From: a virus
Lineage: Duplodnaviria > Caudoviricetes
Length of the DNA stretch: 64,000 nucleotides
IMG/VR virus record: IMGVR_UViG_3300021400_000080
Span: 11,710-75,709 of that record
Reading direction: 5' to 3' (one strand)
The notes beneath the pieces were generated by a model, which saw only the letters and a list, made by a program, of their open reading frames with translations, did no database searches and was not told where the DNA came from. The translations under genes were made by a program, and so were the position numbers. Position 1 is the first letter of the stretch. Each line of letters opens with the position of its first letter. Positions 26,984 to 49,674 of this stretch are shown here, piece after piece.

Positions 26984-27226
26984 ATGGCAGATATGATGGA
27001 CAAAACCATTAGCGCGATACTCACTGCGTTCGTCGCGGTGATATTGATCGCTTCTGCGTTCATCCCTACTGCCATTCAGCAGATCGACACTCTCAACGAC
27101 AAGTACGGGTCGGATGTAGCGGGTTACACCGCACTCATCTCGACGGTCATCATTGTGACGATTGTCGGTATCATAATCGGCATAGTGAAAACCTACTCCT
27201 CCGGAAAAGGCGATGGAGACCGTTGA
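26984..27226 (+). CDS. two-helix hydrophobic capsid-like protein (minor, VP3-like)
   Basis: Hydrophobic helix-Pro-loop-hydrophobic helix, 80 aa. Confidence 0.6.
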   Translation: MADMMDKTISAILTAFVAVILIASAFIPTAIQQIDTLNDKYGSDVAGYTALISTVIIVTIVGIIIGIVKTYSSGKGDGDR

Positions 27227-27253
27227 TCTGACGAATATCGGAAGGTATGAACA

Positions 27254-27496
27254 ATGAACACCGAAGATTTCACCAGCAAAGTTGTCGGCATCGTGATTGC
27301 CGTCATCGTGATCGCGGTCGTTGCCATCCCCATCATCAATGGCATGATCGGAACCGACGGAACCCCTGAGGGATCCACCTACCCCATCCAGTCCGGCTCC
27401 ACCGAAGCTACCATCATCAAGGTCATCCCCATCTTCCTCATCCTGGCCGTCCTGATGGGAGTCGTCTACATGTTCCTCAACGGAAAGAAGAACTGA
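27254..27496 (+). CDS. putative major capsid protein of spindle-shaped-virus type
   Basis: IVIAVIVIAVVAIPIIN...ATIIKVIPIFLILAVL parallels the SSV1 VP1 pattern (LLPVIVSQV...ATLLNLVPLFYIL). Confidence 0.7.
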   Translation: MNTEDFTSKVVGIVIAVIVIAVVAIPIINGMIGTDGTPEGSTYPIQSGSTEATIIKVIPIFLILAVLMGVVYMFLNGKKN

Positions 27497-27503
27497 AGGA
27501 GGC

Positions 27504-27725
27504 ATGAAAATGAACACCGAAGATTTCACCAGCAAGGTTGTCACCGTTGTCATCGCGGTCATCGTGATTGCTGTCGTGGCCATCCCCGTCATCAATCAGG
27601 CGGCCGAGGAAAGCGGAGCCGACAACACCACCAAGACCATCCTGGGAGTCATTCCCATCTTCCTCATCCTGGCCGTCCTCATGACCGTGGTCTACATGTT
27701 CATGAACGGCAAGAAGGACAACTGA
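27504..27725 (+). CDS. putative major capsid protein paralog with a shorter loop
   Basis: Near-identical helices to 27254-27496; different loop. Confidence 0.7.
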   Translation: MKMNTEDFTSKVVTVVIAVIVIAVVAIPVINQAAEESGADNTTKTILGVIPIFLILAVLMTVVYMFMNGKKDN

Positions 27726-27907
27726 TCGCAGAACCACGGGGGGTAGGGTTTACCCCCCAACCTTTTTTCACGACTGCGTAGTTTTTATACATCCCACTCA
27801 TTAGGAGGATTGAGGTTGCCTACATCCTCCGGGGGGTTCTCGATTCCTCCCCCCGATATTCCTTTTTTGTATGCACGTTTTATAAACCACGTTTCCGATA
27901 ATCGAGT

Positions 27908-30418: not shown

Positions 30419-30681
30419 TGTCACCGCAGGAGTTCATCGACATGCTTGCCCAGGCCTTCTTCCAGGGCAATACGCAGATCGCGGGCATAGTCGTGTTCAC
30501 CGCTGTCCTCGCCATCATATACCTCCTGTTCGCGCAGAGGAATATCACCGTAGGTCTTATCCTTACCCTCCCTACGACCCTCGTGTTCTCGCTGATGGGT
30601 ATTCTGCCGGAGGTCCTGACCATCCTCGTGGTGATCGTAACCATCCTCGCCCTCGTCCATAAGTTCAAGGAGATGTCGTGA
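30415..30681 (+). CDS. small 3-TM membrane protein
   Basis: Hydrophobic; ATGA-coupled. Confidence 0.75.
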   Translation: MMSPQEFIDMLAQAFFQGNTQIAGIVVFTAVLAIIYLLFAQRNITVGLILTLPTTLVFSLMGILPEVLTILVVIVTILALVHKFKEMS

Positions 30682-31910: not shown

Positions 31911-31954
31911 TAAACCTCTTAATCCTTTTATATGGACAACCGCGATACGAAAGT

Positions 31955-32371
31955 ATGGCAGAATATTGGCTCTATTGGAGCAAGTTCGAGGACAACAATA
32001 AACGTCCCGGACTGCCCGGAGGATTCAGGACCCTAAAGGATGCGCGCGAATGTGCGTATGAGAACGTTGTCACCAACCATCCCATCGAGATCGACGGGTC
32101 GGGCGAGGTCATCAAGAAGATCAAGGGCATCGTCTACTCCGAGAAGTCGGGTCGTTCGGGACCTGTCCGTCAGCGTGTCCTCAAGGACGGTTCCGTGTCC
32201 AAGACCAAGATTTTCGTCAATCCCGTCAATACCGCAGCCAAACTTAAAGCCAAGACTGCATCCAAGACATCCTCCAAGACCAAGACCGCGCCCAAGAAGA
32301 AACGCAAATACGGGGAGATCCTGGGCGATGCAGCGGTCGAGTTCGGGTCCGGACTCCTTTCACATCTCTGA
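31955..32371 (+). CDS. small Tyr/Lys-rich family protein with a Lys/Thr/Ala tail
   Basis: FRTLKDARECA...VLKDGSV. Confidence 0.75.
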   Translation: MAEYWLYWSKFEDNNKRPGLPGGFRTLKDARECAYENVVTNHPIEIDGSGEVIKKIKGIVYSEKSGRSGPVRQRVLKDGSVSKTKIFVNPVNTAAKLKAKTASKTSSKTKTAPKKKRKYGEILGDAAVEFGSGLLSHL

Positions 32372-32442
32372 AACCCCTTATCCCCCCTACGGGGGGAATC
32401 TACCCGTCCTTTTTATATGCGCTATCGTGATTACTTCATAAA

Positions 32443-34035: not shown

Positions 34036-34039
34036 CGGA

Positions 34040-34312
34040 ATGAAAGTGGATCCCGTAGCGATATTGGCCGTCGCCCTCTTCCTCGCGGGGATGGCTGGCA
34101 TAGCGATAGCGCACGCAGAAACCTACGACAACCCTCAAGACGAACCTAACCCCGTTGAACCGGAGATCGTGTCGCAGACGGAGGGATAGACCCTCTACCG
34201 CCTTGACCTTCAGGGCGGTCCTCTCTACTACTACGAATGTGACACCGAGGACGGCACGATCACCAAGATAGTGGCGATAAAGACCGTCACGATGGATATA
34301 GAAGTCGCGTAA
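34040..34312 (+). CDS. small exported protein with in-frame TAG
   Basis: Signal-like N-terminus; TAG at 34187-34189; frame continues to TAA, directly followed by the AACCTCTT motif. Confidence 0.7.
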
Positions 34313-34373
34313 AACCTCTTAAAAATCCCCCTTCCTCAATATATCTATAATAAATGTTGCAGATAAGTTCAAC

Positions 34374-37300
34374 ATGGCATTGAACACGGCTTGTTCGTTG
34401 AATGAGCAAGGCATGAGCATAAAATGGGTCGGTATCCTGATTTTAGGTATGGCCGCCCTATTTGGATGTATCGTAGCATTTGAATCGGATGATGCGGATG
34501 CAGCTACCGCCAACCCCAATTATAGGGATGGGGATTGGGGTTATGATCTCGTTACGGAAAACGGTCTTACTACCGCCAAGATCGTATCATACTCCGGAAC
34601 AGGCGGGGGTGCGATAACCATCCCCACTACAATCGGAGGATATACCGTAACCCAGGTCGGTAAAAATGCAGACTACGGTAACAACAATGTTTTTGAACCG
34701 ACATTGGTCGCAACCGATCTCATAATCCCCGATGGGATTTTGAAAATCAATAAGTTCGCATGTCAGAATCTTTCCAATTTCACGGGTACGTTAAGTCTCG
34801 GTAACACAGTAACTACGCTTGGGCTTAGTTGTTTTAGTAATGGTGGTTTTACAGGAACTCTGACACTGCCAAGAAGTATTACCACAATTATTTATTCAAC
34901 AGGTAATTACGCAGCATTTTACAATTGTGCCGGTTTCACGGAATTAGTTATCGAGAACGGTATGTCGGGGGACATCGGACATGATATGTTCCGTAATTGT
35001 ACGGGATTCACGGGTGCATTGGTGATACCGGATAGTGTAACTTATATCGGAATGAGGGCATTTCAGGGTTGTTCCGGATTCACATCCTTGTCGATAGGAT
35101 CCAACGTGACTACGATATATGATAGCGCATTTTACAATTGTACCGGATTCAAGGGCAGTCTCACGATTCCCGACAGTGTTACGACATTCGGAGGATATTA
35201 TTCGAGTACCAACCAGGGTATATTCCAGAATTGCAGAGGATTCGACGGAGTATTGAAAATCGGTAATGGAATCACTAAAATTCCAGCAGCATGTTTCATG
35301 AATTGCAGCGGATTCACCGAATTGATCTTAGGAAATTCCTTGACCGAGATTCAGGATTATTCGGATTATGGTGTATTTAAAGGTTGTACGGGATTGACGG
35401 GTAATCTTACGCTACCGAATACGCTTACCAAGATAGGTAACAGTGCGTTCGATGGATGCAGCGGCCTTACTGGAGCATTAGTGATACCCAACAATGTAAC
35501 ATACATCGGATCAGTGGCTTTCAGGAATTGCAGCGGTTTCACTTCATTGACATTGAGTAACAGTCTTACCGAAATCAAGTCAAGTACGTTCAGCGGATGC
35601 ACATCCATGACGGGTGATCTGATCATCCCTGACAGTGTGACAACCATATACTACCCATTCAGTTCTTCTTCTTCTACGAGCAGTCCTTTTTACAATTGCG
35701 GTTTCGGAGGATCGTTGATTATAGGCGATGGACTTACAGCGGTTGGACAATACATGTTCGACGGATGCGTGTTCAACGATAATCTGGTTATCGGAGATTC
35801 GATTACGGACATCCCATCTGGTGCATTTGCATGTTGTAAGACTGCGACAGGTACGCTTACCATCGGAAGCGGGGTTCAATCAATCGGAAACAGCGTATTC
35901 TATCAGTATAAATTCACAGGGTCTCTCGTATTACCCAACGGTCTGAAAACCATCAGGGATCAGGCATTTGCTCAATGCACCGGATTCACGGGATCTCTTG
36001 TAATCCCGTCCACCGTGACAACGATCGGAGTCCATAGTTCATCCACATCAAATTCATCCGGAGCATTTAGAGGATGTACCGGATTCACGGGTGCATTGGT
36101 GATACCGGATAGCGTGACTTTACTCGGAGATAGGACATTCCAGGGATGCACGGGACTTACCGGAACATTGACGATAGGTACGGGGGTCACGGACATCAAT
36201 CCGTATTGTTTCTATGGTTGTAAATTCACGGGTAATCTGAATATTCCCGGGAACGTGGTTAAGATTCTTGATTATGCGTTCGGCAACAATACCGGATTCA
36301 CATCCCTTACATTACAGGAAGGTCTCGATCTGATTTGGACCCGTGCATTTTCGGAGTGTACCGGGATGACGGGAGTGTTGGCAATACCTGATTCCGTGAC
36401 CACGTTGGGTCCGAAGTCGTATGCGAATGGTTGTTTCTACAATTGTTCCGGATTCACCGGACTGAACCTTGGAGACGGAGTGGAAATCATCGGGGATACC
36501 TGTTTCTGGAATTGTACCGCTATGGCAGGAAGTCTGATCATCCCGGATAGTGTGGAATATATCGGAAAGTGTGCATTTTATGAATGTGCCTTCGATGGTA
36601 CTCTTACTATCGGGAATAATGTATCGGAGATAGGATACGGAGCATTTTACAGTTATAATCACGGATCGTTCATAGGCGATCTGGTAATCCCTGATAGTGT
36701 GACTGTGTTCGGGAATCCCAACAGTCAGGGTTATAATCAAGAGCCGATTTTCTGGTATGCGGGATTCACGGGTTCGCTGACTATCGGGAACGGGATAACC
36801 GTCATTCCCCAAGGCACGTTCTATGGATGCGGATTCACAGGTACGCTTACCATCGGGAATAACGTGACACAGATAGGATCATACGATGGAAATACAGGTG
36901 CTTTTGAGAATGTACCGTTCACAGGCGCATTGGTCATCCCGGATAGTGTGACTAAGATCATGGGACGTTCATTCAAGGGATGCAGCGGATTCACGACATT
37001 ATCCCTCGGTTCGGGATTGACACAGATCACGGGATATGATACATTTAGGGATTGCACCGGATTCACGGGTGCATTGGTGATACCCGATACCGTCCAGTAT
37101 CTCGGACCCAAAAATACATCAGGTACTACCTTTACAGGAGGTCGTGCGTTCATGGGATGTACGGGATTCACATTCCTTACCATCGGTAAGAATGTGGAAC
37201 TCATCGGACCCGGAACGTTCAGTGGATGTACGGGATTCAGAGGGGACCTGGTGATTCCCGACAGTGTTGTAGAGATCGCGTATGGATCATATTATCATCC

Positions 37301-38378
37301 GGATACAACCACTCCCTTCTATAATTGCGGATTCGACGGTTCGCTCATCATCGGAGACGGGTTGTCAGCTGTTTATGACTATATGTTCAACGGCTGTGCG
37401 TTCCAGAACGACCTTGTAATCGGAGATTCCATCGTAGGTATTCCCATAGGTACTTTTGACAGTTGCAGGAATTGTACGGGTACTCTGACCCTGGGAAACG
37501 GTCTGAAATCAATAGAGAGACAAGCGTTCAGCGGTTATAAATTCACAGGGGAATTGATACTTCCCGAAGGAATGACTGAATTGAAATACGGTGCTTTTGA
37601 GAATTGCAAGGGATTCACGGGACCTCTTGTCATTCCGGATAGCATGATAACCTTGGGTAATAACAATTCATCGAATAATGATGGGGTATTCGCAGGTTGT
37701 TCCGGATTCACATCCCTTGTCCTCGGCAGCTCGCTTGAGATGATAGGCCGCAGTACTTTTGCATCATGCACCGGTATGACAGGCGATCTGATAATCCCGG
37801 ATAGCGTGACTGTGATCGGATACAATGCGTTCAACGGTTGTTCATTCACATCATTGGATATAGGCAGCGGATTAACGTCCATTCCCGGACAGGCATTTTA
37901 CGGAAATAAATTCGCAGGAACACTGGTGATCCCGGATAATATACAGACGATAGCAAGCCACGCATTTTATTTCAATAATAATTCAAGAGTGGATACATTG
38001 GTGTTGGGTAGGGGACTCACATCCATCGGAACTTACTCATTCGATACAGCGTATGCAGCACAATCCAGACTGGATAATATCGTGGCATTATCCGACCCCA
38101 CTATCGGCACGGGTGCGTTCAGAGGATCAACAGTATCCCAAATCCTGAATCTGACTGGTTCGGATCTGACCAATGTCGTACCTGGAAACGGAGACATCCC
38201 CTCGACAGCTACGATCCGCACAGCTTTCGAGGATACGGCTATGCTCCAACACACTACCGAGACCATCGTGGTAGATAAAGAAGGGATGGAATACAGTATC
38301 ATGCGGGTGATCCCGATTATAATGGCATTGGCAATACTGATCGGGGTTGCATATTACATCAGGGGGAATAAGATATGA
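34374..38378 (+). CDS. BspA-type leucine-rich-repeat (LRR_5) adhesin anchored by a capsid-like helix 2
   Basis: Many CTGFTG.L.IPDSVT.IG..AF repeats; signal peptide (start probably 34413); C-terminus SIMRVIPIIMALAILIGVAYYIRGNKI. Confidence 0.9.
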   Translation: MALNTACSLNEQGMSIKWVGILILGMAALFGCIVAFESDDADAATANPNYRDGDWGYDLVTENGLTTAKIVSYSGTGGGAITIPTTIGGYTVTQVGKNADYGNNNVFEPTLVATDLIIPDGILKINKFACQNLSNFTGTLSLGNTVTTLGLSCFSNGGFTGTLTLPRSITTIIYSTGNYAAFYNCAGFTELVIENGMSGDIGHDMFRNCTGFTGALVIPDSVTYIGMRAFQGCSGFTSLSIGSNVTTIYDSAFYNCTGFKGSLTIPDSVTTFGGYYSSTNQGIFQNCRGFDGVLKIGNGITKIPAACFMNCSGFTELILGNSLTEIQDYSDYGVFKGCTGLTGNLTLPNTLTKIGNSAFDGCSGLTGALVIPNNVTYIGSVAFRNCSGFTSLTLSNSLTEIKSSTFSGCTSMTGDLIIPDSVTTIYYPFSSSSSTSSPFYNCGFGGSLIIGDGLTAVGQYMFDGCVFNDNLVIGDSITDIPSGAFACCKTATGTLTIGSGVQSIGNSVFYQYKFTGSLVLPNGLKTIRDQAFAQCTGFTGSLVIPSTVTTIGVHSSSTSNSSGAFRGCTGFTGALVIPDSVTLLGDRTFQGCTGLTGTLTIGTGVTDINPYCFYGCKFTGNLNIPGNVVKILDYAFGNNTGFTSLTLQEGLDLIWTRAFSECTGMTGVLAIPDSVTTLGPKSYANGCFYNCSGFTGLNLGDGVEIIGDTCFWNCTAMAGSLIIPDSVEYIGKCAFYECAFDGTLTIGNNVSEIGYGAFYSYNHGSFIGDLVIPDSVTVFGNPNSQGYNQEPIFWYAGFTGSLTIGNGITVIPQGTFYGCGFTGTLTIGNNVTQIGSYDGNTGAFENVPFTGALVIPDSVTKIMGRSFKGCSGFTTLSLGSGLTQITGYDTFRDCTGFTGALVIPDTVQYLGPKNTSGTTFTGGRAFMGCTGFTFLTIGKNVELIGPGTFSGCTGFRGDLVIPDSVVEIAYGSYYHPDTTTPFYNCGFDGSLIIGDGLSAVYDYMFNGCAFQNDLVIGDSIVGIPIGTFDSCRNCTGTLTLGNGLKSIERQAFSGYKFTGELILPEGMTELKYGAFENCKGFTGPLVIPDSMITLGNNNSSNNDGVFAGCSGFTSLVLGSSLEMIGRSTFASCTGMTGDLIIPDSVTVIGYNAFNGCSFTSLDIGSGLTSIPGQAFYGNKFAGTLVIPDNIQTIASHAFYFNNNSRVDTLVLGRGLTSIGTYSFDTAYAAQSRLDNIVALSDPTIGTGAFRGSTVSQILNLTGSDLTNVVPGNGDIPSTATIRTAFEDTAMLQHTTETIVVDKEGMEYSIMRVIPIIMALAILIGVAYYIRGNKI

Positions 38379-39076
38379 GCCAAGAGGAACTGTCCAATAA
38401 CATAGCCGGTATCGCGGTGTGCGTGGTCGTGTTCGCGGTCATAGCCATACCGATCTTCTACGGACTTACCACCGAACCGTATACCAATGTGAATGAAGAT
38501 GCGATAGGTGAATTACGTCTCGGATACCAGGAACAGGTTTTCAGGGAGGAGATCATAGAAGCCGAGACGGAGGAAGAAGAGGACGAAGTGATATTGGTCG
38601 ATATTACTGCCTATGTTGCAAAATCGTATCTCTTCACGATCAACGGAGATACTATATCGGTATCGGGTGATTGGACGGGCGAATTATCCTTGTCCGACAA
38701 TCAGATCATCATCGGCTCCGACAATTACCAATTGACCATCCAGTACGGAAAACTGATCGAGTCTGTCGATGGATATGGTGTGGAAGTGTTTTCACCCCTC
38801 CAAGTGTCCATCCACGACGGTTCCGTGAAGGATGTTCCGTACACGTTCCTCTATTATCCGGATGCGAAAGGCCCGTATGCCAATTACCAATCCTATCGGT
38901 ATGACATCACCGACCACTATTCTGTCGGAACATTCGCAGGGGTAACGGTTTCCGCGATCAATGACGAGGTAAAGGGCGATAACCAATACGGTTTCGGAGC
39001 CGAGACACAGACCGAAGATGGTACAACGACCGGAGTGGTATATTCGCCAAGAACGGAAGAACAGACCGAATCGTAA
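38375..39076 (+). CDS. capsid-like helix 1 plus ectodomain (no helix 2)
   Basis: IAGIAVCVVVFAVIAIPIFYGL matches the capsid helix 1; ATGA-coupled to the LRR gene. Confidence 0.75.
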   Translation: MSQEELSNNIAGIAVCVVVFAVIAIPIFYGLTTEPYTNVNEDAIGELRLGYQEQVFREEIIEAETEEEEDEVILVDITAYVAKSYLFTINGDTISVSGDWTGELSLSDNQIIIGSDNYQLTIQYGKLIESVDGYGVEVFSPLQVSIHDGSVKDVPYTFLYYPDAKGPYANYQSYRYDITDHYSVGTFAGVTVSAINDEVKGDNQYGFGAETQTEDGTTTGVVYSPRTEEQTES

Positions 39077-39162: not shown

Positions 39163-41121
39163 ATGGCAGAAGAAAAGAGCATAACGAGTATGGCGATCAC
39201 CGTGGTCATCGCGTTGGTCGTGACATGCACCGTACTCTTCCCGGTCATCAACAGTGTTAATGATGGCGGGAACGGGGGAGGCAGCGGAGGTGGAAGTGCA
39301 GTAGGGTCCGCAGCCGGTCCGCTGACCTACACCAACGAGGGGGACTACTACTACCAGGATTATGATAAGGCAACGGCAGATGCTATGGCGATCAGTATGT
39401 CCTTGTCCAGTGGCAGCGATGTCGGAATGAGCATCAATGTAGGGGGAGATGTGATCAACACCCCCACATATCCTGCAACCTGGACATCAGCAGTAGGAGA
39501 CCCCAACGAATGTCAGATTATTCTGCCTCTCTTATACATCGAGCAAATTCCTGGGAATTTTAGCGGAATTTTGATGTATCTCAACGGGCATTATGAACTG
39601 CCTGGTCCTGCATATACATTCGACATATGTTTCCTTGCAACTGGGACATCCGGCGGGAATCCGATGGCGATTTCGATGGGTATGCCACTCACTAACGAGA
39701 TGCTTGCAGGGGTTACATCGGTAAACACACTTTTGGGATTGTTGCCATTCTTCCCTCCAGGTACAACGATAAGTTACGATACCATTCGCCTACTGGCTTC
39801 TGAAGGAGATTATGTTTCAGCCAAGAATCCTGTGGTCGGGAACGAAAGCGATGCGTGGCTGTTCAATGCAACGTATGATTATTCCTGGGATGAAAGTGAG
39901 ATTTACGGCATATACAAGTATTATGTATGGTGGATTGATGGTGTGGAGACTCATACCGAGATTTCATACAATGGTGGATCCGGATACAGCCAGTATGGGA
40001 ACGATCCTACAATAGTCGTGAACAGATCTACAATCAACGATTTGTCAAGAGTGGATAGCTTCACGGTCCAGTATGTCGGAACTTCCTCTGATCGTCACGC
40101 GTATCTCGATTATTCCGATGTTTATGCGATTATACCTAAGACCGTAGAATACACGCTTGCATCGGGCGATAATTCAGATAATGTGACCGCACATGCGACA
40201 TATTATGAGACTGCACCTAATCTGAATATCGCAGTGTCCTATACCACGGAAACACGCGAGGCCGCTGTTTGGGGTGAAACTAATACTGTGACTTCAGTTG
40301 ATACTCTTACATTATCCTATGACGGACATTCAATCACAGTCGATAACCGCGCTAATCTTAATGAGTATTTCACCAGGATGGCGAGTGCAACGACCAATGA
40401 TGAGTGGACCGAGATAGATAATTGGATGTATTCGGTTAATTCTGTTCCTATCTTATTCAATCCACCTATCAATAATGAGACAAGTTCGTTGAGTGATAGG
40501 ATAGTCACGATTTGGCTACCTTATGCAGTGCCACAAGGGGAGTTTGAAAATGTTTCTTCCGACATACCCACCTCAATATCCATTACCCCTACGCAGGTCA
40601 CTGTAACATCGCCTAACGACTCGCGGGATTATCCCATAGATGGCCCGTGCTATATTATCAGTGACACGGGGGATTACGGAGTATTCACCCAAAACAATCT
40701 GTCCGAGGGAGTTTATGTGGGTTCCGATATTCTGACCGATTTCAACGGCCCTATTACCGGACAAGATTCGGTTTTGAGATTCGTTCAGATATTCAATATG
40801 AATTTCAGTACGAGTATGTATGAGACTTCCTCACGTCTCCAGGACACCTATGCCTTGACCATCGAGGACGGTATGCTCAAGGACATAGGATGGGAGGGAG
40901 GATACAGGCAGACGGGCAACAATCCCATGGCCGAATACGGACACATCTCCGCGCAGTATGTCATTCTGCCCTTATCCGCAGACAACGGTTCGGGAGGCGG
41001 TTCCTCCGGCAACGGAAACCTCGGAGTAGCCGGAACGATCCTCGCGGTCGTACCAATCTTCGTGGTCCTGGGCATCCTAATGTATGCCGTCCAGTATTTC
41101 CGCGATCCCCGGAAGCTTTGA
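39163..41121 (+). CDS. capsid-hairpin paralog with an ~570-aa passenger between Gly linkers
   Basis: ITVVIALVVTCTVLFPVINS-GGNGGGSGGG...GGGSSGNG-VAGTILAVVPIFVVLGILM. Confidence 0.85.
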   Translation: MAEEKSITSMAITVVIALVVTCTVLFPVINSVNDGGNGGGSGGGSAVGSAAGPLTYTNEGDYYYQDYDKATADAMAISMSLSSGSDVGMSINVGGDVINTPTYPATWTSAVGDPNECQIILPLLYIEQIPGNFSGILMYLNGHYELPGPAYTFDICFLATGTSGGNPMAISMGMPLTNEMLAGVTSVNTLLGLLPFFPPGTTISYDTIRLLASEGDYVSAKNPVVGNESDAWLFNATYDYSWDESEIYGIYKYYVWWIDGVETHTEISYNGGSGYSQYGNDPTIVVNRSTINDLSRVDSFTVQYVGTSSDRHAYLDYSDVYAIIPKTVEYTLASGDNSDNVTAHATYYETAPNLNIAVSYTTETREAAVWGETNTVTSVDTLTLSYDGHSITVDNRANLNEYFTRMASATTNDEWTEIDNWMYSVNSVPILFNPPINNETSSLSDRIVTIWLPYAVPQGEFENVSSDIPTSISITPTQVTVTSPNDSRDYPIDGPCYIISDTGDYGVFTQNNLSEGVYVGSDILTDFNGPITGQDSVLRFVQIFNMNFSTSMYETSSRLQDTYALTIEDGMLKDIGWEGGYRQTGNNPMAEYGHISAQYVILPLSADNGSGGGSSGNGNLGVAGTILAVVPIFVVLGILMYAVQYFRDPRKL

Positions 41122-41465: not shown

Positions 41466-41996
41466 TTGGGATATGAGTCTATGGACATGCAGAAGAGCAT
41501 CAACCCCATCATACTGGCATTTATCGGTATGGTCATAGTGGGTATGCTCCTGATCCCGTTCCTGCTGGATGTCACCCATGAGCCGGACATCAACCAGGGC
41601 AGTACGGTCAGTTACCAACCCCGTACCAACCTCGATGCCGACTTCACCTATTCGGGTACGCTGCTCGAACATTCGCAGTACACTATCGACCCGGAGACGG
41701 ACGGGATAACGATCACATTCACCGAAGAGGGAACATTCACCCTTATAGTGACCGCGACATCCCATAACCCCTATCAGACCGCCACACAGACGATAGAATA
41801 CGAAGTAGGGGAATACGGGGAATACCACGATTACAAACCGCTGCTGCTCCTCGTTCCCACTATGTTCCTCGTAGCGTTCATGATGCTGGTCCTCGGACGT
41901 AAATCAGGCGGTGACGGGTTCGGGGATGACTCCGGGTTCGGAGGGGGATCGGACATCGCCGGGAAGTTCGGCAGAGGCGGATTCGGGAAACGCTGA
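41466..41996 (+). CDS. capsid-hairpin-like protein with a single Ig-like passenger and a Gly-rich tail
   Basis: IGMVIVGMLLIPFL...Ig module...KPLLLLVPTMFLVAFMM. Confidence 0.7.
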   Translation: MGYESMDMQKSINPIILAFIGMVIVGMLLIPFLLDVTHEPDINQGSTVSYQPRTNLDADFTYSGTLLEHSQYTIDPETDGITITFTEEGTFTLIVTATSHNPYQTATQTIEYEVGEYGEYHDYKPLLLLVPTMFLVAFMMLVLGRKSGGDGFGDDSGFGGGSDIAGKFGRGGFGKR

Positions 41997-42064
41997 TACC
42001 GTTCATCTTATATATGGTCGGGAACGATTAATCTGCATAGAACCTACAAGGTTTGGTGATTAAT

Positions 42065-42400
42065 ATGGCAGAGACCAAATATGCGGTTGTCAAGGGATTG
42101 AGTTGTAACGATCCCTCTAAATTGAAGAAGATGACCTTGACTGAGGCGCGTATAGAAGCGTGCAGACTGGCGAAAAAGCATCTTAATTCTCACACGAGGA
42201 TCGGTATTTTCGCAGAGGACAAATATCACATCTCCGGCGGCAGATATATGCCGAAATGTATTGAGGATGTGCGTTATGTTGATGATGGGATAGGCCGTAA
42301 GGGGTTCTATCTGCTTCAGTGGGAAAAGAACAGGAATTATAGGGTATCCCCTACATCCGGACGTTTGATGGATTACAGCCGCGAGTGGAAGTACATTTGA
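42065..42400 (+). CDS. small Tyr/Lys-rich family protein
   Basis: MTLTEARIEACRLA...YRVSPTSGRL. Confidence 0.75.
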   Translation: MAETKYAVVKGLSCNDPSKLKKMTLTEARIEACRLAKKHLNSHTRIGIFAEDKYHISGGRYMPKCIEDVRYVDDGIGRKGFYLLQWEKNRNYRVSPTSGRLMDYSREWKYI

Positions 42401-42410
42401 GGCGAAAGAT

Positions 42411-42752
42411 ATGGCGAAACGCGGCTCCGATCTGCTCCCCCACAATGCGCCCGGTTATGTCTGGAAACTCGGTTCGAGGTTCGGCACGGGGAAGAAGATG
42501 ACCTACGGTCAGTACCTCAAGACGGGCAGCGGATTCAGTTGGGGAGGTCAGGACGGTCCGCAGATAACGAGGGATCGTAAGGTCTACAACTACTCCGATG
42601 AGTTCATAACCAAGACCTATCGTGGCGAGGAATATGTGTTCTACTCCGTCCAGGTGTATGTGGATGGTTCCCGCAGATACATCCTACCCGGAACAAGGAC
42701 GGGAAGAGGATACAAGGACTGGAAGAAGGACGGCATCGTGAGGTTCTATTAA
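42411..42752 (+). CDS. hypothetical protein
   Basis: In operon; Gly/Tyr/Lys-rich. Confidence 0.65.
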   Translation: MAKRGSDLLPHNAPGYVWKLGSRFGTGKKMTYGQYLKTGSGFSWGGQDGPQITRDRKVYNYSDEFITKTYRGEEYVFYSVQVYVDGSRRYILPGTRTGRGYKDWKKDGIVRFY

Positions 42753-42761
42753 GGTGAAGAT

Positions 42762-43127
42762 ATGGTGTATAGCATCGAGACATATTCAATGGGGGATAGG
42801 AAGTTCATCGTACTTAGAGACGATATAAAGACCATCAAGACCGCAAGGATTTTAGCATGCAGATATGCTAAAGAATACAGTAAGGTTGCAATCTACCCCG
42901 CACGCAAAAGCGATCTTCAAAAATTCGGACAAAAAGTTTTCACGGAAGGAGCATTTGCGAAAGAGGAAATCTATTATAACAGGTCGAAAGCGTGTTATAT
43001 CTCTGAAAAAAAGGAAGAGATCCTCGATGGAAAAAAGGGTTACAGTCCCATTGTCAATAAGTATTACAAGGTCAATGGAAGAACAGGGGAGATCACACTT
43101 ATTGAAGAATATCGCAAAAAATGGTAA
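42762..43127 (+). CDS. small Tyr/Lys-rich family protein
   Basis: IKTIKTARILAC...YKVNGRTGEI. Confidence 0.75.
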   Translation: MVYSIETYSMGDRKFIVLRDDIKTIKTARILACRYAKEYSKVAIYPARKSDLQKFGQKVFTEGAFAKEEIYYNRSKACYISEKKEEILDGKKGYSPIVNKYYKVNGRTGEITLIEEYRKKW

Positions 43128-43144
43128 ACTATCGAGGTGATGAT

Positions 43145-43498
43145 ATGGCATATTACGTCCGTAATGCTAAATGGTGGAACAGGGAGAGCAAAAGCGAATA
43201 CACATCCTACTCTACGCTTTCGGAGGCGAGGGTTGCAGCGGCCCGTCTCCTATCCCACGAATACTATGACGGAGAGAGTGTTCCGATCTACATCAAGAAA
43301 AGCAACAGATATTCCATCTATGCTTTCGTCCGTGAGGTCATTGGATCTTACGAGGGAGAGGATGAGGACATTCCTGTGGGTTCATCCAAATTCGTATATC
43401 GTACCGCTTCCGGAACGGAATGTCTCATGTCCAAATCGGGTGAGTTGGGCAAGACCAGATGGAGATCGTGGTTCAAACTCGAATATCCGAGACACTGA
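43145..43498 (+). CDS. small Tyr/Lys-rich family protein
   Basis: YSTLSEARVAAA...MSKSGELGK. Confidence 0.75.
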   Translation: MAYYVRNAKWWNRESKSEYTSYSTLSEARVAAARLLSHEYYDGESVPIYIKKSNRYSIYAFVREVIGSYEGEDEDIPVGSSKFVYRTASGTECLMSKSGELGKTRWRSWFKLEYPRH

Positions 43499-43511
43499 AA
43501 GGCGAAACAAG

Positions 43512-43847
43512 ATGGCTGGATGTGAGGACGTTTTGGAGAAGATCGTTAAGCCGGGGTATTTGGAGATTCCGTCCCTGGATGCCTACGTTGAGGTCACGGG
43601 CGATGATGATTTCGATGATGAATATCTTAGCGTGACCCTTGGCGGGTGGATCTCGTTCCTATTCACAAGGGACGGTTCCAGATGTATCGAGATATGGGAC
43701 ATCCATACCGGGGAGGAAACGATCTTCGAGGAGGATGAGGTCGGGGATGCCATAAAGGAATGGTATTCGGCCGCATACGAGAAGAGGGTATTGCCGACTC
43801 TCCGTGAGTTCTTGAAGGGGGAAAAGAATGAAGATACCCAACAGTGA
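43512..43847 (+). CDS. acidic hypothetical protein
   Basis: D/E-rich, 111 aa. Confidence 0.65.
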   Translation: MAGCEDVLEKIVKPGYLEIPSLDAYVEVTGDDDFDDEYLSVTLGGWISFLFTRDGSRCIEIWDIHTGEETIFEEDEVGDAIKEWYSAAYEKRVLPTLREFLKGEKNEDTQQ

Positions 43848-44136
43848 AGCGCGTTTGATGATCGGGAAAAGGGTACTCTACGAGGTCTGCCGTACCGTGC
43901 AGGCAGAGGTAAGGCACGAAGGGGATAATGTCAAGGCATATCATTACTTCTACTCCGATCGGGATTCCGCTATCGCCAAGTATGATGAGCTGTGCTGCAA
44001 ATATCCGTATCCGAAGTCCAGACATATCACGTTGAAGAGATGGAATACATCAGGGATGCTCGTTACCGACATCTATACGAACAGATTTCTTCATAACGAC
44101 GGCAAGACGTACCGTGATGTTTCGAAACTGAAATGA
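43828..44136 (+). CDS. hypothetical protein
   Basis: In operon; RBS upstream. Confidence 0.6.
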   Translation: MKIPNSEARLMIGKRVLYEVCRTVQAEVRHEGDNVKAYHYFYSDRDSAIAKYDELCCKYPYPKSRHITLKRWNTSGMLVTDIYTNRFLHNDGKTYRDVSKLK

Positions 44137-44184
44137 TCGTTTTAAACCCCTTCTTTTTTTATATGATGATTCGGATTATTTATT

Positions 44185-44541
44185 ATGTCCAAAACATCGA
44201 AAGTCCACGGACCTTATTATCTGGAGTACAAGGGATGGAGTGGCGGTTACAAACCCGTCAGGGATGCCAAGACACCCGGATATGCGACACAGTACAAGAC
44301 CATCACCGAGGCGAGGAAGAAGGCGGTCCTCTTCATCAAGCACAACTCCTGCCAGTTGGTCGGGATTCAGGGAGAGGTCGGCAAGAGGACATACGGCCGC
44401 GATGGGAGGCCCATCGTCCAGGGCGGCACCGCCGGTATCGTGGAGAGGGAGTACGACGGATACACGTTCATCTACCGCGACTACAATTCCGGCAATACCT
44501 ACCGTATCAACAAGGACGGATCGGTCAAGAAGATGGAGTGA
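44185..44541 (+). CDS. small Tyr/Lys-rich family protein
   Basis: YKTITEARKKAV...YRINKDGSV. Confidence 0.78.
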   Translation: MSKTSKVHGPYYLEYKGWSGGYKPVRDAKTPGYATQYKTITEARKKAVLFIKHNSCQLVGIQGEVGKRTYGRDGRPIVQGGTAGIVEREYDGYTFIYRDYNSGNTYRINKDGSVKKME

Positions 44542-44546
44542 GAGAT

Positions 44547-45263
44547 ATGGGAAGATTCACAGTCAAGATCGGCGGCGAGGAAAAGGTATTCAAGGATGCC
44601 GACAACCTCCGCAGATACGTTATGCGTTACGGAGACAAGACCAAGAGATATACCTATCAGGGAGAGGGCGGTCAGTTCATTGACGGCTATGGGGTCATGT
44701 ATTACACGCAGAAGGACGGTTGGAAAGTCAAACTCAAGACCGGAAGCATATATCAGATTGACAGAAGGTCTGGAGAGATTTTCGAGGGTGGCAGATACAC
44801 AGTCAGGATGGCAGGAAAGGGTGAGTCAAATCCTCGCATCTTCTCTACTGATGATTTCTCCGATGCGATCAACAAGGCAATCACTCAGTATGCCCGGAAC
44901 CGTGGAAGAAAAGTCTATATCTACGATAAGGACAAGAAACTCGGACGTATCGGAGAGAGAAGCGGATACGCAACGTGGATAGACCACAAGACCAAGAGAA
45001 CGACATCGTTCAAGGATGATGATTACGAAGTGCCGAGGAAACCCGCCGGACTTACCCCCAAGCAGCCCGGTTGGATCATCGCCGGCAGGAGAGCCGGAAG
45101 CAAGGGCGCGTTCAAATACTTCTCCGGAGAGTCATTCGCGGCCAAGAAGTATGCGATGGTATGGCCTTACAACAAGTACGAACAGGCAGAGAAAACCATC
45201 GAGGAGCTGCGCTGGTACGGTGAGTATGAACATTACGAGTTCAAGATCGTAAGAGAGTCTTGA
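44547..45263 (+). CDS. multi-module Tyr/Lys-rich family protein
   Basis: Tandem units: FKDADNLRRYV...YQIDRRSGEI and DDFSDAINKA. Confidence 0.7.
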   Translation: MGRFTVKIGGEEKVFKDADNLRRYVMRYGDKTKRYTYQGEGGQFIDGYGVMYYTQKDGWKVKLKTGSIYQIDRRSGEIFEGGRYTVRMAGKGESNPRIFSTDDFSDAINKAITQYARNRGRKVYIYDKDKKLGRIGERSGYATWIDHKTKRTTSFKDDDYEVPRKPAGLTPKQPGWIIAGRRAGSKGAFKYFSGESFAAKKYAMVWPYNKYEQAEKTIEELRWYGEYEHYEFKIVRES

Positions 45264-45283
45264 TTTCGGAAAGGTGTCCAAAT

Positions 45284-45640
45284 ATGGCAGAATATCAGTT
45301 CAGACTGGAACAGTGGGTTCTACATTCTGTTAAGAACAGTCGTGGATACTACGATTACACATCGGAATACACCCCCATCGGTAAGATGTCCAAGAAGTAT
45401 AAGTCTCTTCAAGAGTGCCGTGCCGCTGCCCGGAAGTATCTTATCGACAATAAGATCTCGTCAGGCACATCAAGTCCGAGGAAAGTGGCCGTCATCTATC
45501 TCAATGGGAAAAAGAGTACCGGGTACGATCTGGTATGTTATGGTGGTATGGTCTTGCTTTTCGGAGCATCGGGCGAGACGGTCGTTTCCGAGAACGGCAA
45601 CACGTTCAAATTGAGGACATTCGGTGGAATGTATCACTGA
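45284..45640 (+). CDS. small Tyr/Lys-rich family protein
   Basis: YKSLQECRAAAR...VSENGN. Confidence 0.75.
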   Translation: MAEYQFRLEQWVLHSVKNSRGYYDYTSEYTPIGKMSKKYKSLQECRAAARKYLIDNKISSGTSSPRKVAVIYLNGKKSTGYDLVCYGGMVLLFGASGETVVSENGNTFKLRTFGGMYH

Positions 45641-45968
45641 TTGGGAATTGATGGGATTTCCTTAAATACCCAATGTCCGATTCTATCTATGCCGTCCTTG
45701 AAGGATGGGTCAGGGACGGCAATCCGATAGTAGCGATCGTGTCACTTTTCCTATGCACCTCTCCCATCCGCTTATCACACTTTTATATACCCCGACACGG
45801 ATTCATAATACGGAGGATAGCCGCGGTCCGTCTCCTCCTAACGCAGTCCGAACATCAGACGGCCGCGCGACGAGGGTTCCTTGTAGCCACGATGCCGGGT
45901 CCCGAAGTCGGTCATTTCGCCCGGCATCAACACTTTTCTTTTTATATAGCCATTCTAATTTATGAACT

Positions 45969-46322
45969 ATGCCGCCATCGTCGATTCGCAGATTCAAACC
46001 TTCGACATTCTATTTCTACGACTATCCCCACAACGGAGATATGATATACGTCCTCAAGAGGGAACTTGTGAAATCCAGTCCGGACACTTGGCGCATCACA
46101 TTCGTGGATACGGACAATTATTTTGACGAAGAAGATGGAATGATGCGTATCACAAGCGCAACCGTAAGTCTGGCAGATTATGGGTATTACATTACCGAAG
46201 TGTTGAACAGCCATAGGGTTTCTGCAACCAGAAGTATGTCCAATAAGGACAGTTACTACAAACCTTTCAAAAAGCACGTTCAGTCTTTTTTAAAGCGTTC
46301 TAAAGCGAAAGGCAAGTATTAA
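45969..46322 (+). CDS. hypothetical protein
   Basis: TTTTATATA promoter upstream. Confidence 0.6.
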   Translation: MPPSSIRRFKPSTFYFYDYPHNGDMIYVLKRELVKSSPDTWRITFVDTDNYFDEEDGMMRITSATVSLADYGYYITEVLNSHRVSATRSMSNKDSYYKPFKKHVQSFLKRSKAKGKY

Positions 46323-46375
46323 TCTGATAAACAACCCCCCATCTATGATGGGGGGAAAGGGGATAATACATACTA

Positions 46376-47011
46376 TCAATCGTTCTTGAGGATCACATAC
46401 AAGAACACGTTTTGCGCGGTCCTTCCGCTGCCGTCATCGTAGTGTGCAGTAATGGATATGTCCACAACTCCGTCAGCGGAATAATACCAGCCGTCATGAT
46501 CCACGACATCCTTGAAGTTGGATCTGTTCCACTGTTCCGTGCCGTCGATGTAGTGGCAGAGATACCTGTTGAATCCGCTTAGCTGCGTGTTCGCACCATA
46601 GGAATGGGAACTGGACTGACCGTTGATGATCACATTGTCAATATCCACATAGGTCACTATACGGTAGTCCTCCCCGTTGTATATCCTTATCACGAACGGG
46701 GTGTTCTCCGGGATGCTCAATGCGACATTCACATTCCCGTCGGAGTCTGCGATACCTCCGTTGGCATTGTCCTTACTGGATATGGTTATCATGTCGTATT
46801 CGACCCCTTTATAGGTTGTGGAACCGCCCTCCGTGTTATAATCGGGGGTAGAAGGGTCAATCGTTATGGGGATGTTCGAGGATATGTACGTCACGGAGAT
46901 CGTGTTGCCGTCTATCGTGGTGACGGACGTAATAGGAAGTGCGGAGACGATTGTGACGGGAACGAGCAGCAAGGCGGTCAGAAGAACACATGCGACGATT
47001 CCTTTTCTCAT
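46376..47011 (-). CDS. exported beta-rich protein, paralog of 47063-47698
   Basis: N-terminal hydrophobic helix, then SVTTIDGNTISVTYI. Confidence 0.7.
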   Translation of the reverse strand: MRKGIVACVLLTALLLVPVTIVSALPITSVTTIDGNTISVTYISSNIPITIDPSTPDYNTEGGSTTYKGVEYDMITISSKDNANGGIADSDGNVNVALSIPENTPFVIRIYNGEDYRIVTYVDIDNVIINGQSSSHSYGANTQLSGFNRYLCHYIDGTEQWNRSNFKDVVDHDGWYYSADGVVDISITAHYDDGSGRTAQNVFLYVILKND

Positions 47012-47062
47012 TCCTTCGTCCTCCGAGATAGAATAGATGGGGTCCGAGGACCCCTAAAGGGT

Positions 47063-47698
47063 TTAAGGTTCGGGGATCTCCGCAACGAATGTGAAGATAC
47101 TGCCGGGGTTCTGTGCATCCTGGTAGTTGGTGAATCCGAGGGTAGCACCGGGGTTGGTGTCGATGGACTGCGCCTGTGCGTTGGTATACGCAACGTAGAG
47201 TTCAACATCGTATTCCGTGGAGAGGGCAAGACTCGTGAAGAGCCATCCCGACTGGCCGCGGTCGTTGTGTGCCTGGTATGTGGCAACTTCGCTGCCGACG
47301 GTCATGATGTAGTCCAGTCCGGTAACGGGGGTGAACAGGGTGCAGGTGACGAACAGGTCGAAAGAGGACCCGACATCGCCCGTGGGGGTGACGGTGAAGG
47401 ATATGGCATCCGTGTTGGAGATCTTCGCACATGCCTTTCCGTCCACGGTATTGTCCGTGTTCAGTTTGTATGTGATGGTCTGCGTGTTCCCGGCGGGTCC
47501 ATTGACAACGGTGTCGAATTTCGCGCTGCCCAGGAAGTCGGACGTGTCGGTCGCAGAGATGACGATGTACTCGTTGTCGAGAGTGTTGTCCGTGACATCC
47601 GTCTGCGACTTGATGAGATATGCGGCAGTGACCGATCCGGCAGTGAACAGAATCACGAACAGGACAACGGCCACGATAGCGGTTGTTTTCTTGATCAT
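47063..47698 (-). CDS. exported protein with a TasA/SipW-substrate-like N-terminus
   Basis: Hydrophobic helix, then TAAYLIKSQTDVTDNTLDNEYIVI. Confidence 0.65.
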   Translation of the reverse strand: MIKKTTAIVAVVLFVILFTAGSVTAAYLIKSQTDVTDNTLDNEYIVISATDTSDFLGSAKFDTVVNGPAGNTQTITYKLNTDNTVDGKACAKISNTDAISFTVTPTGDVGSSFDLFVTCTLFTPVTGLDYIMTVGSEVATYQAHNDRGQSGWLFTSLALSTEYDVELYVAYTNAQAQSIDTNPGATLGFTNYQDAQNPGSIFTFVAEIPEP

Positions 47699-47814
47699 AG
47701 AGATACCTCTTGTCAGCAGTCTGACATATTACAATCTGTGTGAGGGATTAAAAGCATATCCCAACAATCCCCATTTCCGCAATCCTTTTTATTCCCTCCC
47801 TCCCATACTTATTC

Positions 47815-49674
47815 ATGGAACAGAATGTTCTTATTACGAAAATGATAGGGATAATCGTTGCCGTTATCGTGGCAGCGGTTGTCCTTGTACCGATATGCAA
47901 CTCCCTGACCGAAGGGAACGGGGGTAGCGGAGGAGGAGGAGTAACAGGGATTCAGGTTGCCAATCCCAACTATGTTTCCCCCTCCGTATTCATGACAGAT
48001 GAGATAGGTTGGACGGCTATGACAAATACGGATATGGAGGCATATTTCCCCACATCCGGAGATTACATCGAAGGATATTCCAATATCGTATCCGGGAGGA
48101 ACAAGATCGCATTTGTAGATGATATTTCCATGACCGAATGTACCCTTACCTATTGGAACAGATACCTTGATTCAAGCAGTAATGGTAATCCTATATGGTA
48201 TATCTCATTCCCCGGACAGGTGGAAGGATTCGGAGATGCGTCCTCTTGGAGTCTTTCGTCCGATGGTAATATCACGATAACCTACAAGGTTTCAGGAATG
48301 TCGAATTATACCACAAAAACATTCAAGGCATTGTATCTATGGTATGATGCTCCCACGGGTAATTACCACAACCTTAGTGGTATCACATACGATCAGAATC
48401 TTGAAAAACTCGGAGGTTTCGCTGGTGTCGGTGATTACATCGGAATATCCGGACAAGTCCAGAGTCAGTATAACCCCGGAATGTTACCGTTCGTATATAT
48501 GGGTCAGATTCCTGAAAGCATGAATGTATCCATATCATACACGGACTATCAGTTCGATCAAGCCACTGAAACTATCACCCCTATCCCGTCCACGGCCAAT
48601 ATCGACCTGACGGCTATATCCTACTCGGTTCAGTTGGAGGATGGCAGATACTATTTCCCTACTGCGTTCGCGGTTGCTCCGACCTATACGTTCGAGGGTC
48701 ACTACGAGGATCGTGTCATGACACTGGATTGGATAAAACAGAAAATGTCGGAGGACGATGGTCTATGGGGATTCGATTATTCTGATGCACCGGGATACGA
48801 GGATACTATCCTATGTTTCAACGGGTTCGGTAAGATCGGGACGATGGCGCAGTATTGGGTCTATCCTACGGACGGTCAATGGAGTGAAGGCAGAATGGAA
48901 CGTGTAGCCACTACCGCAGCGGATTTCGCTATGGTTTTCGACAATGGTTATGGAACCGGATGCCTTTTGCAGATTGAACGTGAAAAAGAAGTAGGTAGTG
49001 AGACTTGGAGTTATCAGGGTCTTGAGATAACAGAGGATATTGTATTGGGTGAGGTCAATATCAGTTCTTACGACACTGCATATCTCTCGAAAGCGAATAT
49101 GGGGAATGTGATGTACTATCGTGATACATTCATGAACAATCAGTTTACAGGACAGTATATCGCGCAGTTCTCGGAAAATGCTAACGGATTTTGGCTCATT
49201 CCTAATTCGGAGGTCATATCGGATGAGGATTTCGATTGGAGCAGTGTTCCTGAAGATTTCCTTATCCCCAATCCCGTATCGTGGGAAACCGCGCTTGCTA
49301 ACAACCCAATAACCATAACAAATCTGGCGGTAAAGGATGCTATCTACCCCTATTATGATTTCATCCTTGATAATACAGGAAAGGCATACATGTTTGAATC
49401 TCCTTCTTCGGAGTATGAGCGTCAGGGACCCGAATACAATGAAGTTGCAATTTGGACACCTGGAACGTCTCCGTTGAATTGTGCAATACCCATGTCATAC
49501 GATTATAGGGTACTCGCAGCCGGAGAGGGGGATTCGTCTAATGGCGGCGGTTCTTCGGGAGGTAACGACCTCGGAGTAGCCGGAACGATCATCGGCATCA
49601 TCCCCGTGTTCGTGATACTCGCCATCCTAATGGGAGCTGCCGGACTGTTCTACCAGAACCGTAAGACGATCTGA
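47815..49674 (+). CDS. capsid-hairpin paralog with an ~540-aa passenger between Gly linkers
   Basis: IGIIVAVIVAAVVLVPICNS-GNGGSGGGG...GGGSSGGN-VAGTIIGIIPVFVILAILMG. Confidence 0.85.
   Translation: MEQNVLITKMIGIIVAVIVAAVVLVPICNSLTEGNGGSGGGGVTGIQVANPNYVSPSVFMTDEIGWTAMTNTDMEAYFPTSGDYIEGYSNIVSGRNKIAFVDDISMTECTLTYWNRYLDSSSNGNPIWYISFPGQVEGFGDASSWSLSSDGNITITYKVSGMSNYTTKTFKALYLWYDAPTGNYHNLSGITYDQNLEKLGGFAGVGDYIGISGQVQSQYNPGMLPFVYMGQIPESMNVSISYTDYQFDQATETITPIPSTANIDLTAISYSVQLEDGRYYFPTAFAVAPTYTFEGHYEDRVMTLDWIKQKMSEDDGLWGFDYSDAPGYEDTILCFNGFGKIGTMAQYWVYPTDGQWSEGRMERVATTAADFAMVFDNGYGTGCLLQIEREKEVGSETWSYQGLEITEDIVLGEVNISSYDTAYLSKANMGNVMYYRDTFMNNQFTGQYIAQFSENANGFWLIPNSEVISDEDFDWSSVPEDFLIPNPVSWETALANNPITITNLAVKDAIYPYYDFILDNTGKAYMFESPSSEYERQGPEYNEVAIWTPGTSPLNCAIPMSYDYRVLAAGEGDSSNGGGSSGGNDLGVAGTIIGIIPVFVILAILMGAAGLFYQNRKTI

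Follow-up and report, generated by a model that had tools for sequence, protein, structure and literature searches.

Helices of a putative spindle-virus capsid protein flank exchangeable domains in large proteins encoded by a gut metagenomic virus

A virus record of 75,709 bp in the IMG/VR database (IMGVR_UViG_3300021400_000080) carries 107-nt direct terminal repeats and was judged to be complete. The window analyzed here is the 64,000-nt stretch formed by bases 11710-75709 of this record, and positions given without a record name refer to it. In the window, a replication block is followed by three small genes encoding two-helix proteins, by the genes of the conserved membrane proteins p836 and p410, located directly 3' of these capsid-type genes, by the gene of the secreted-looking protein p530, and then by the genes of large proteins in which the same helices were found (Table 1). 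Two of the latter, p652 and p619, are the main subject of this study: they begin with one helix of the small proteins and end with the other, and a large passenger domain is placed between the two.

An earlier note on this DNA, made from the sequence alone, had regarded the small proteins as capsid proteins of the spindle-virus type. Two of them, paralogs A and B, could be aligned throughout, except for a 10-residue difference in the loop. Among 177,635 PDB sequences, the top match of a profile of 27 family members was VP1 of the fusellovirus SSV19 (7xdi_A, E 0.006), and this match covered both helices and both proline-containing motifs. The AlphaFold2 (AF2) model of paralog A was a helical hairpin (helices 3-31 and 50-79) with a predicted local distance difference test score (pLDDT) of 81.6, and a fold search with this model ranked 7xdi_A first among 48,161 chains (Z 7.7, root-mean-square deviation 2.5 A, 69/69 residues), with generic helical hairpins tying within 1 Z. 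The identity of the paralog A/B-type proteins to SSV19 VP1 was 14%, and the Pfam matches of the small proteins, to VP1_VP3 (E 0.014) and His1_capsid (E 0.009-2e-5), were all below the curated cut-offs. Because SSV19 VP1 was the top match by both sequence and fold and because the hairpin was modeled with a pLDDT of 81.6, paralogs A and B were taken as capsid proteins; the support for this assignment, which agrees with that of the earlier note, is good but not conclusive.

The third small protein is a more distant paralog. Its match to PF25665 (E 2.1e-5, 24.8 bits) was under the cut-off of 27, and its gene is kept at the same position in a related genome (G002, described below). In metagenomes, 42 relatives of paralog A were found at E<=2e-12, several of them on contigs of 44-74 kb, and a tblastn search of GenBank phage records with paralog A yielded no relative. 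Among 44 small capsid relatives, the length of the loop varies by up to ~27 residues; the loop is rich in S, T and G, with N-x-T sites in many cases, and the proteins have basic C-termini. When paralog A was compared with longer proteins in a set of 5.8e9 sequences, none was found at E<=1, a search in which 20-bit helix matches cannot pass at such a database size.

A hidden Markov model (HMM) was built from paralogs A and B and searched against all 879 open reading frames (ORFs) of the window. Besides the paralogs themselves, its matches were to both ends of p619 (E 6e-13; model positions 4-48 at residues 2-47 of the ATG-started protein and positions 53-81 at residues 589-617), to both ends of p652 (E 1.6e-9), to the N-terminus alone of p233, to the C-terminus alone of p1334 and, weakly, to the third small protein. 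There was no match to p836, to p410 or to the ORF with multiple transmembrane (TM) segments at 50461-51522. Profiles of the single helices were also searched against the 75.7-kb genome. The helix 1 profile matched paralogs A and B, p619, p652 and p233, the helix 2 profile matched paralogs A and B, p619, p652 and p1334, and neither of them matched anything else; the third small protein gave no significant score with either profile.

In a profile-profile comparison, 54 N-terminal and 57 C-terminal segments of the family of large proteins described below were aligned with 44 small capsid proteins. The N-terminal segments matched capsid protein residues 1-37 (Prob 97.6%, E 4e-12) and the C-terminal segments matched residues 47-80 (Prob 97.8%, E 1.2e-12), so that the alignments began at the first Met of the capsid protein and ended in its last residues. 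These true pairs scored 57-61, compared with 18-20 for reversed profiles, a maximum of 16.5 for column-shuffled ones, 14.0 for the N-terminal segments against helix 2 and 9.4 for the C-terminal segments against helix 1. The hhalign probabilities of p836, p410 and p530 against the capsid helix profiles did not exceed 1%. Furthermore, helix 2 is encoded by DNA with 61-82% identity between the four genes (repeat family D7). Since the scores in the true order (57-61) were far above those of the controls (9-20), since other TM proteins were not matched and since the likeness extends to DNA identity, it may be concluded that the termini of p652 and p619 share a specific homology with the capsid hairpin, collinear from end to end, rather than a hydrophobic composition. 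A comparison with generic TM anchors had been set in advance in the earlier note as one that could refute its proposal; it separated the capsid pairs clearly from both the controls and the other membrane proteins. In both p619 and p652, the alignment of the N-terminal segment with capsid helix 1 starts at residue 1, and an ordinary signal peptide, as in a type I spike such as pleolipovirus VP4, was not encountered; a signal-like N-terminus is present in p1334 alone.

The insert takes the place of capsid protein residues ~38-46, that is, of the length-variable loop. Glycine-rich linkers bound the inserts of p652 and p619, and the earlier note was correct in placing the insertion at the loop in which paralogs A and B differ by 10 residues. 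The interiors of p652 and p619 have no similarity to each other. The small capsid proteins and the large family alike show 100% conservation of the proline of each helix and equally of A/V/V (helix 1) and of T, IPxF and F (helix 2). Relative to the small capsid proteins, the large family has fixed a change of A to L before the helix 1 proline and a change of PIFL to PxFV, and a conserved Tyr has been lost. Because the capsid-invariant positions are kept while a few positions are fixed differently, the large proteins appear to form an old, separate paralog line under a similar structural constraint.

Table 1. Genes and other features discussed in the text (window positions unless a record or contig is named)
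Feature	Position	Strand	Description
p652	39163..41121	+	helix 1 residues ~7-32, linker DGGNGGGSGGGS 34-45, passenger ~560 aa, linker DNGSGGGSSGNGN 607-619, helix 2 residues ~620-648
p619	47815..49674	+	helix 1 residues ~6-31, linker EGNGGSGGGG 33-42, passenger ~530 aa, linker 572-585, helix 2 residues ~586-615
p1334	34374..38378	+	N-terminal signal-like helix, BspA-type leucine-rich repeat ectodomain, C-terminal helix 2 only (residues ~1303-1333, nt ~38280-38375)
p233	38375..39076	+	helix 1 only (residues 1-34), then ~200-aa domain without C-terminal helix; ATGA overlap with p1334
p176	41466..41996	+	TM, ~85-aa beta domain, TM, Gly/Arg-rich tail
His1-capsid-like 80-aa two-helix protein (third, more distant capsid-like paralog)	26984..27226	+	Pfam match to His1_capsid PF25665, below the cut-off
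Capsid paralog A, 80 aa	27254..27496	+	helix 1 residues 3-31, loop ~18 aa, helix 2 residues 50-79
Capsid paralog B, 73 aa	27504..27725	+	loop 10 aa shorter than in paralog A
Leucine-rich repeat adhesin module, loci listed	34374-39076; L022:191-3634 (-); L019:16826-19863 (+)		
D5-like primase-helicase	20637-22142		replication block, upstream of capsid trio
SNF2 helicase	22189-23685		replication block
YqaJ nuclease	24819-25856		replication block
His1 ORF23/ORF26/ORF27 region	L028 (AF191796) 7862-11253		record annotation

The earlier note had listed three larger proteins with capsid helices at their termini. This was borne out for p652 and p619 but not for the third, p176, which was matched by the HMM at E 2.8 and whose hhalign scores of 22.7 and 18.4 (Prob 25% and 7%) were barely above the controls; on account of these low probabilities, p176 was left out of the paralogs. 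Its beta domain gave a weak PKD-like match (E 0.025), below the Pfam cut-off, and its C-terminal part is 38% identical to the C-terminal anchor of p768 of G002. The tail following the second TM segment of p176 is rich in Gly, Arg and Phe (…GKFGRGGFGKR) and is conserved in the provirus G001; it would face the DNA side if the topology of p176 equals that of the capsid protein.

A phmmer search with p619 against 1.84 billion protein representatives (50%-identity clusters) yielded 59 proteins of 140-867 aa. Most of them were matched in only two stretches, p619 residues ~1-45 and ~572-619, with an identity of up to 88%. Both anchor motifs were present in 55 of 60 proteins, p619 and p652 included, and the inserts of these 55 members were 233-796 aa in length (median 326). 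The share of G, S, N and D was 73% in the 15 residues after helix 1 and 80% in the 15 residues before helix 2, compared with 31% in the interiors. The interiors fell into 29 unrelated BLAST groups, and in several pairs flanks that were 94-100% identical enclosed unrelated interiors. A common interior was found in only 3 of the 44 pairs with flanks at least 80% identical, a ratio inflated by the use of 50%-identity cluster representatives, which inherently enrich pairs with the same flanks and different interiors. Even allowing for this bias, exchange is required because identical flanks enclose unrelated passengers. Thus, the swapped inserts with constant flanks that the earlier note had proposed to look for in related metagenomic viruses were indeed found.

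The genomic setting of these genes was examined in related loci. Four ENA contigs of 62-74 kb (L009-L012) contain the capsid trio, four complete hairpin-insert genes and the pair of genes described in the next paragraph. More divergent versions are located beside the capsid genes in the provirus G001 and in G002, a 60.9-kb genome with terminal repeats whose capsid protein is 49% identical, and two further contigs (L024 and L027) carry two hairpin-insert copies each. Overall, related genomes have 1-4 hairpin-insert genes adjoining the same capsid genes. Distant family members are located on short contigs without capsid genes, and no relatives of p619 were found among viral contigs in the related-locus search.

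A split form of the hairpin was found in p1334 and p233, whose genes overlap. The ectodomain of p1334 consists of BspA-type leucine-rich repeats (LRRs), for which the Pfam match to LRR_5 (PF13306) was above the cut-off (E 1e-166, 546 bits, 11 stretches), and its C-terminus is capsid helix 2 (profile E 5e-6; hhalign Prob 88.6%). Helix 1 is located at the N-terminus of p233 (profile E 2e-7; hhalign Prob 94.1%; DNA repeat family D8). The pair is kept in L012 with identities of 60% and 56%, respectively. In the provirus G001, a single ORF of 1148 aa comprises helix 1 (E 5e-7), a domain resembling that of p233 (40% identity), LRR_5 (4e-107, 353 bits) and a C-terminal TM helix, which is helix 2-like and falls inside the BLAST alignment to p1334. 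In G002, a homolog of p233 has helix 1 only (E 6e-10); its gene lies before, and overlaps slightly with, that of a protein that has a signal peptide and an anchor resembling helix 2. Therefore, the LRR module is fused in G001, split in G002 with the helix 1 gene in front, and split in the present genome and in L012 with the helix 2 gene in front, which looks like gene fission and permutation of the two-helix anchor. The fused, split and order-swapped forms suggest that the two halves act together, most simply by re-forming the hairpin. The BspA-LRR adhesin would thus be carried on a split anchor, to which p1334 would contribute helix 2 and the translationally coupled p233 would contribute helix 1.

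The nature of the passengers was also studied. Searches of Pfam and PHROGs gave nothing significant for the passengers of p652 and p619 or for p233, p836, p410 and p530. The AF2 model of whole p619, based on a 5-sequence alignment, was unusable (pLDDT 32.7), and the ESM Atlas models of p652 and p619 (pLDDT 0.32 and 0.28, respectively) gave no usable look-alikes. The K+R content of the passengers was 3-4%, compared with 6-20% in the replication proteins, and the number of N-x-S/T sites per 100 aa was 0.8-1.7, compared with 0-0.7. In these respects, the passengers look like archaeal extracellular proteins. Because the passengers are turned over rapidly and because one of them is an LRR protein, their most likely role is in attachment, either to host cells or to surfaces of the gut.

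Several other features of the locus were recorded. The gene of p619 is surrounded by approximately nine genes of small soluble proteins of 99-126 aa (42053-46322 and 49734-50434, +), which share, by eye from the translations, an apparent motif …ARxxAxxxxK… followed by a beta-rich part and which resemble a multi-copy paralog family. Two divergent ORFs of 211 aa are located upstream of p619 (46376-47011 and 47063-47698, -); both have a signal-like helix at the N-terminus, followed by a body rich in beta structure. The motif AAACCYCTTAYCCCC(C)-N3-4-GGGGG, a C/G hairpin, occurs at positions 32373, 39077, 41123 and 49676, that is, 5' of p530 and 3' of the stop codon in each of p233, p652 and p619; it is probably a common terminator, and it makes the conserved DNA that flanks the cassettes longer. 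Genes of a P-loop ATPase and of a serine recombinase (55463-56338, +, and 52184-53008, -) are located 3' of the structural region; the ATPase, which gave a weak Zot/STAND-like match, is a possible morphogenesis ATPase. A C5 cytosine DNA methyltransferase interrupted by an intein is encoded at 7152-8426 (-) (Pfam DNA_methylase 7e-36, Intein_splicing 6e-10 and Hint_2).

Signals of the host were sought in the same genome. According to a listing of sequencing runs, its DNA is found in animal gut metagenomes, and no RNA runs carrying it were among the runs listed. A contig search returned a single contig of 1.4 kb, binned with a metagenome-assembled genome of Methanomicrobiales and too short to name the host. 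The stop codons of 28 checked genes were TGA in 24 cases, TAA in 4 and TAG in none. A nuclease ORF at 26582-26911 (+) contains an in-frame TAG at 26756-26758; when read through, it matches Pfam Hjc above the cut-off (E 5e-5) over a region that spans the TAG, and the homolog of this Hjc-like nuclease in G002 has Leu at this position. The in-frame TAG is compatible with a pyrrolysine-decoding (Methanomassiliicoccales-like) host or with a recent nonsense mutation.

In SSV19, the turn of VP1 forms the capsid's outer face and both termini are inside (PMC9351363), and the capsid turn with its predicted glycosylation sites has likewise been placed on the outside (PMC10866085). Because the turn of SSV19 VP1 is outermost, a domain inserted into the turn would point outward. 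It appears probable, and is held here with moderate confidence, that p652 and p619 are old paralogs of the major capsid protein of the same virus, in which the turn has been replaced by a linker-held passenger of 230-800 aa that is displayed on the virion. The hairpin would first be inserted into the host membrane with its termini inside and the passenger outside, as for the capsid protein, and would then pack as a minor component among the capsid hairpins in the virion shell, with the passenger exposed on the outside of the particle. The hairpin would thus serve as a plug into the capsid protein lattice, the passenger being held outside on two flexible linkers rich in G, S, N and D, and the constant flanks would allow recombination to swap passengers without disturbing the anchor. 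Incorporation into virions, outward display and a binding function are what we infer from the homology, the insertion point and the modularity of the family.

A number of points weigh against the proposed display on the virion. SSV19, the only spindle virus with a solved tail structure, contacts its host via a tail at one pole (PMC9351363; PMC10791045), and display over the whole body would therefore be unusual. The fixed differences between the anchors and the capsid protein could mean a different packing site, and a tight lattice of hairpins could accept passengers of ~60 kDa only sparsely. The gene of p619 is located outside the main structural block, among the genes of small soluble proteins. 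The presence of p652 and p619 in virions is putative, the genome being a metagenomic one, and the predicted adhesin role is drawn from the variability and composition of the passengers and from the LRR case, as their folds were not predictable and no family was matched. The bias of the cluster representatives noted above belongs here as well.

The same capsid-derived anchor might instead hold these proteins at one pole, where they would start or cap capsid strands as tail fibers or spikes, in the manner of VP4 and B210 of SSV19 or of pIII of Ff phage. This alternative is considered unlikely but serious, because the tail proteins of SSV19 hold the initial VP1 subunits: each of the seven strands begins with a VP1 that stacks on bundles of hydrophobic helices in these proteins, and the host is contacted via the tail (PMC9351363; PMC10791045). 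The class-specific substitutions fixed in the anchors and the small number of such genes per genome are also in line with a polar position. However, the sequence itself does not specify a pole, fitting anywhere in the lattice would require a complete capsid-like hairpin of two helices, and p836 and p410, whose genes immediately follow those of the capsid proteins, are just as good as candidate tail or nozzle proteins.

A role restricted to the infected cell is less probable still. In that case, the hairpin would be merely a membrane anchor, and the proteins would act on the cell surface in adhesion, superinfection exclusion or the organization of budding sites without entering the virion. Sulfolobus spindle-shaped viruses are reported to bud through the cell membrane (PMC10791045), so any capsid paralog is plausibly a membrane protein of the infected cell, and the extracellular composition of the passengers fits this explanation equally well. 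Nevertheless, nearly all lattice-relevant invariant residues, both prolines included, are kept over a diverse family, which is more than a plain TM anchor needs; in addition, the cassette-like turnover of passengers is typical of virion receptor-binding proteins, and the genes are located in the structural block or adjoin it. The last explanation, that the termini are ordinary signal-anchor and stop-transfer helices that resemble the capsid protein through composition or convergence, was tested and rejected as highly improbable: although all of the segments are strongly hydrophobic and p176 and ORF23, VP26 and VP27 of the virus His1 have a TM-domain-TM topology without a detectable capsid likeness, the score gap to the reversed, shuffled and cross-helix controls, the negligible probabilities of p836, p410 and p530, the alignment over the full length of the capsid protein, the DNA identity and the mere 59 matches in 1.84e9 proteins speak against it.

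The proposed display on the virion can be compared with known systems. In Ff phage, in which pIII and engineered pVIII are used for display, a small hydrophobic helical coat is likewise assembled at a membrane, binding domains are joined by Gly/Ser linkers to a coat-like anchor, and large passengers are tolerated only as a minority among wild-type subunits. In contrast to the present proteins, these are terminal fusions rather than loop insertions, the proteins are bacterial and unrelated, and display on pVIII is man-made. In the engineered hepatitis B core antigen, whole proteins are inserted with flexible linkers at the tip of a capsid helical hairpin, and in 'SplitCore' the halves of this hairpin are on separate chains, formally the same solution as p1334 and p233; here the differences are the engineered origin, the unrelated fold family and the icosahedral capsid. 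The passenger of p1334 resembles BspA-type LRR surface proteins (PF13306), from which the module differs in that a capsid helix 2 anchor is paired with a helix 1-only protein or, in G001, in that the LRR lies inside a full hairpin. In His1 (Halspiviridae), ORF23, ORF26 and ORF27, which adjoin the two-helix ORF21, are annotated with an N-terminal hydrophobic segment and a C-terminal anchor, and VP26 and VP27 are virion proteins. No similarity was detectable between His1 VP21 and the termini of ORF23, VP26 and VP27 (phmmer E 0.2-4.6), and the layout of a hairpin with an insert is therefore not demonstrably general; this topology may be more general and hidden by divergence.

Fuselloviruses are the closest comparison for the small proteins. 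VP1 and VP3 of SSV1 and SSV19 (PF06281; 7XDI chain A) are also curved hydrophobic hairpins of ~80 aa with a proline in each helix and are encoded as tandem paralogs, whereas the turn of SSV19 VP1 has 9 residues (PMC9351363) and its sequence similarity to the proteins studied here is weak. A VP1/VP3 paralog with a domain in the turn was not described in the fusellovirus literature examined. The tail proteins VP4 and B210 of SSV19 offer a parallel: they are large and glycosylated, contact the host and are held in the shell by hydrophobic helices that serve as a support for stacked VP1 (PMC9351363); they differ in being three-helix bundles and not capsid paralogs, in being confined to the sevenfold tail and in having no layout of constant flanks and swapped inserts. 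The literature examined on spindle viruses of ANME-1, Bathyarchaeia, Thermococcales, nanohaloarchaea and thaumarchaea covers hairpin-shaped capsid proteins, paralogs of the capsid protein and lectins or adhesins encoded by genes of their own, and a capsid hairpin with a domain in the turn was not described in it (Medvedeva et al. 2023 (Nat Microbiol 8:2170) and the Asgard-virus preprint were outside this comparison). According to the Eurekaviridae proposal of the ICTV (submitted in 2024, ratified in March 2025), there was no classified spindle-shaped virus of methanogens before it. The predicted pair of helix 2-only p1334 and overlapping helix 1-only p233 is newly recognized here.

Host recognition by spindle-shaped viruses is largely unknown outside the Sulfolobus models, and the gut-associated group studied here is without an isolate. 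We tentatively suggest, with confidence slightly short of even, that large spindle-type viruses of gut methanogens have evolved a modular capsid display in which the hairpin would be a universal shell plug, adhesion or receptor-binding domains would be swapped between its flanks by recombination, and split hairpins, whose halves would reassemble, would serve passengers that are incompatible with the loop. The fused, split and order-swapped LRR forms would illustrate cleanly how gene fission can act on a module of two helices. The architecture would be a natural counterpart of engineered loop-insertion and split-capsid display and could interest particle engineering. Studies of SMV1 describe its capsid as self-healing and similar to a membrane (PMC10589707). 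Should the hairpin anchor the proteins in the shell, these genes would explain how functional domains are carried by a lattice of tiny hydrophobic hairpins, would reveal the receptor-binding repertoire of the whole virus group and would provide a simple two-anchor search rule for such proteins in metagenomes. If the modular display is true, the swapping of cassettes would reprogram the range of hosts or the tissue tropism, and several different passengers would be carried on one particle.

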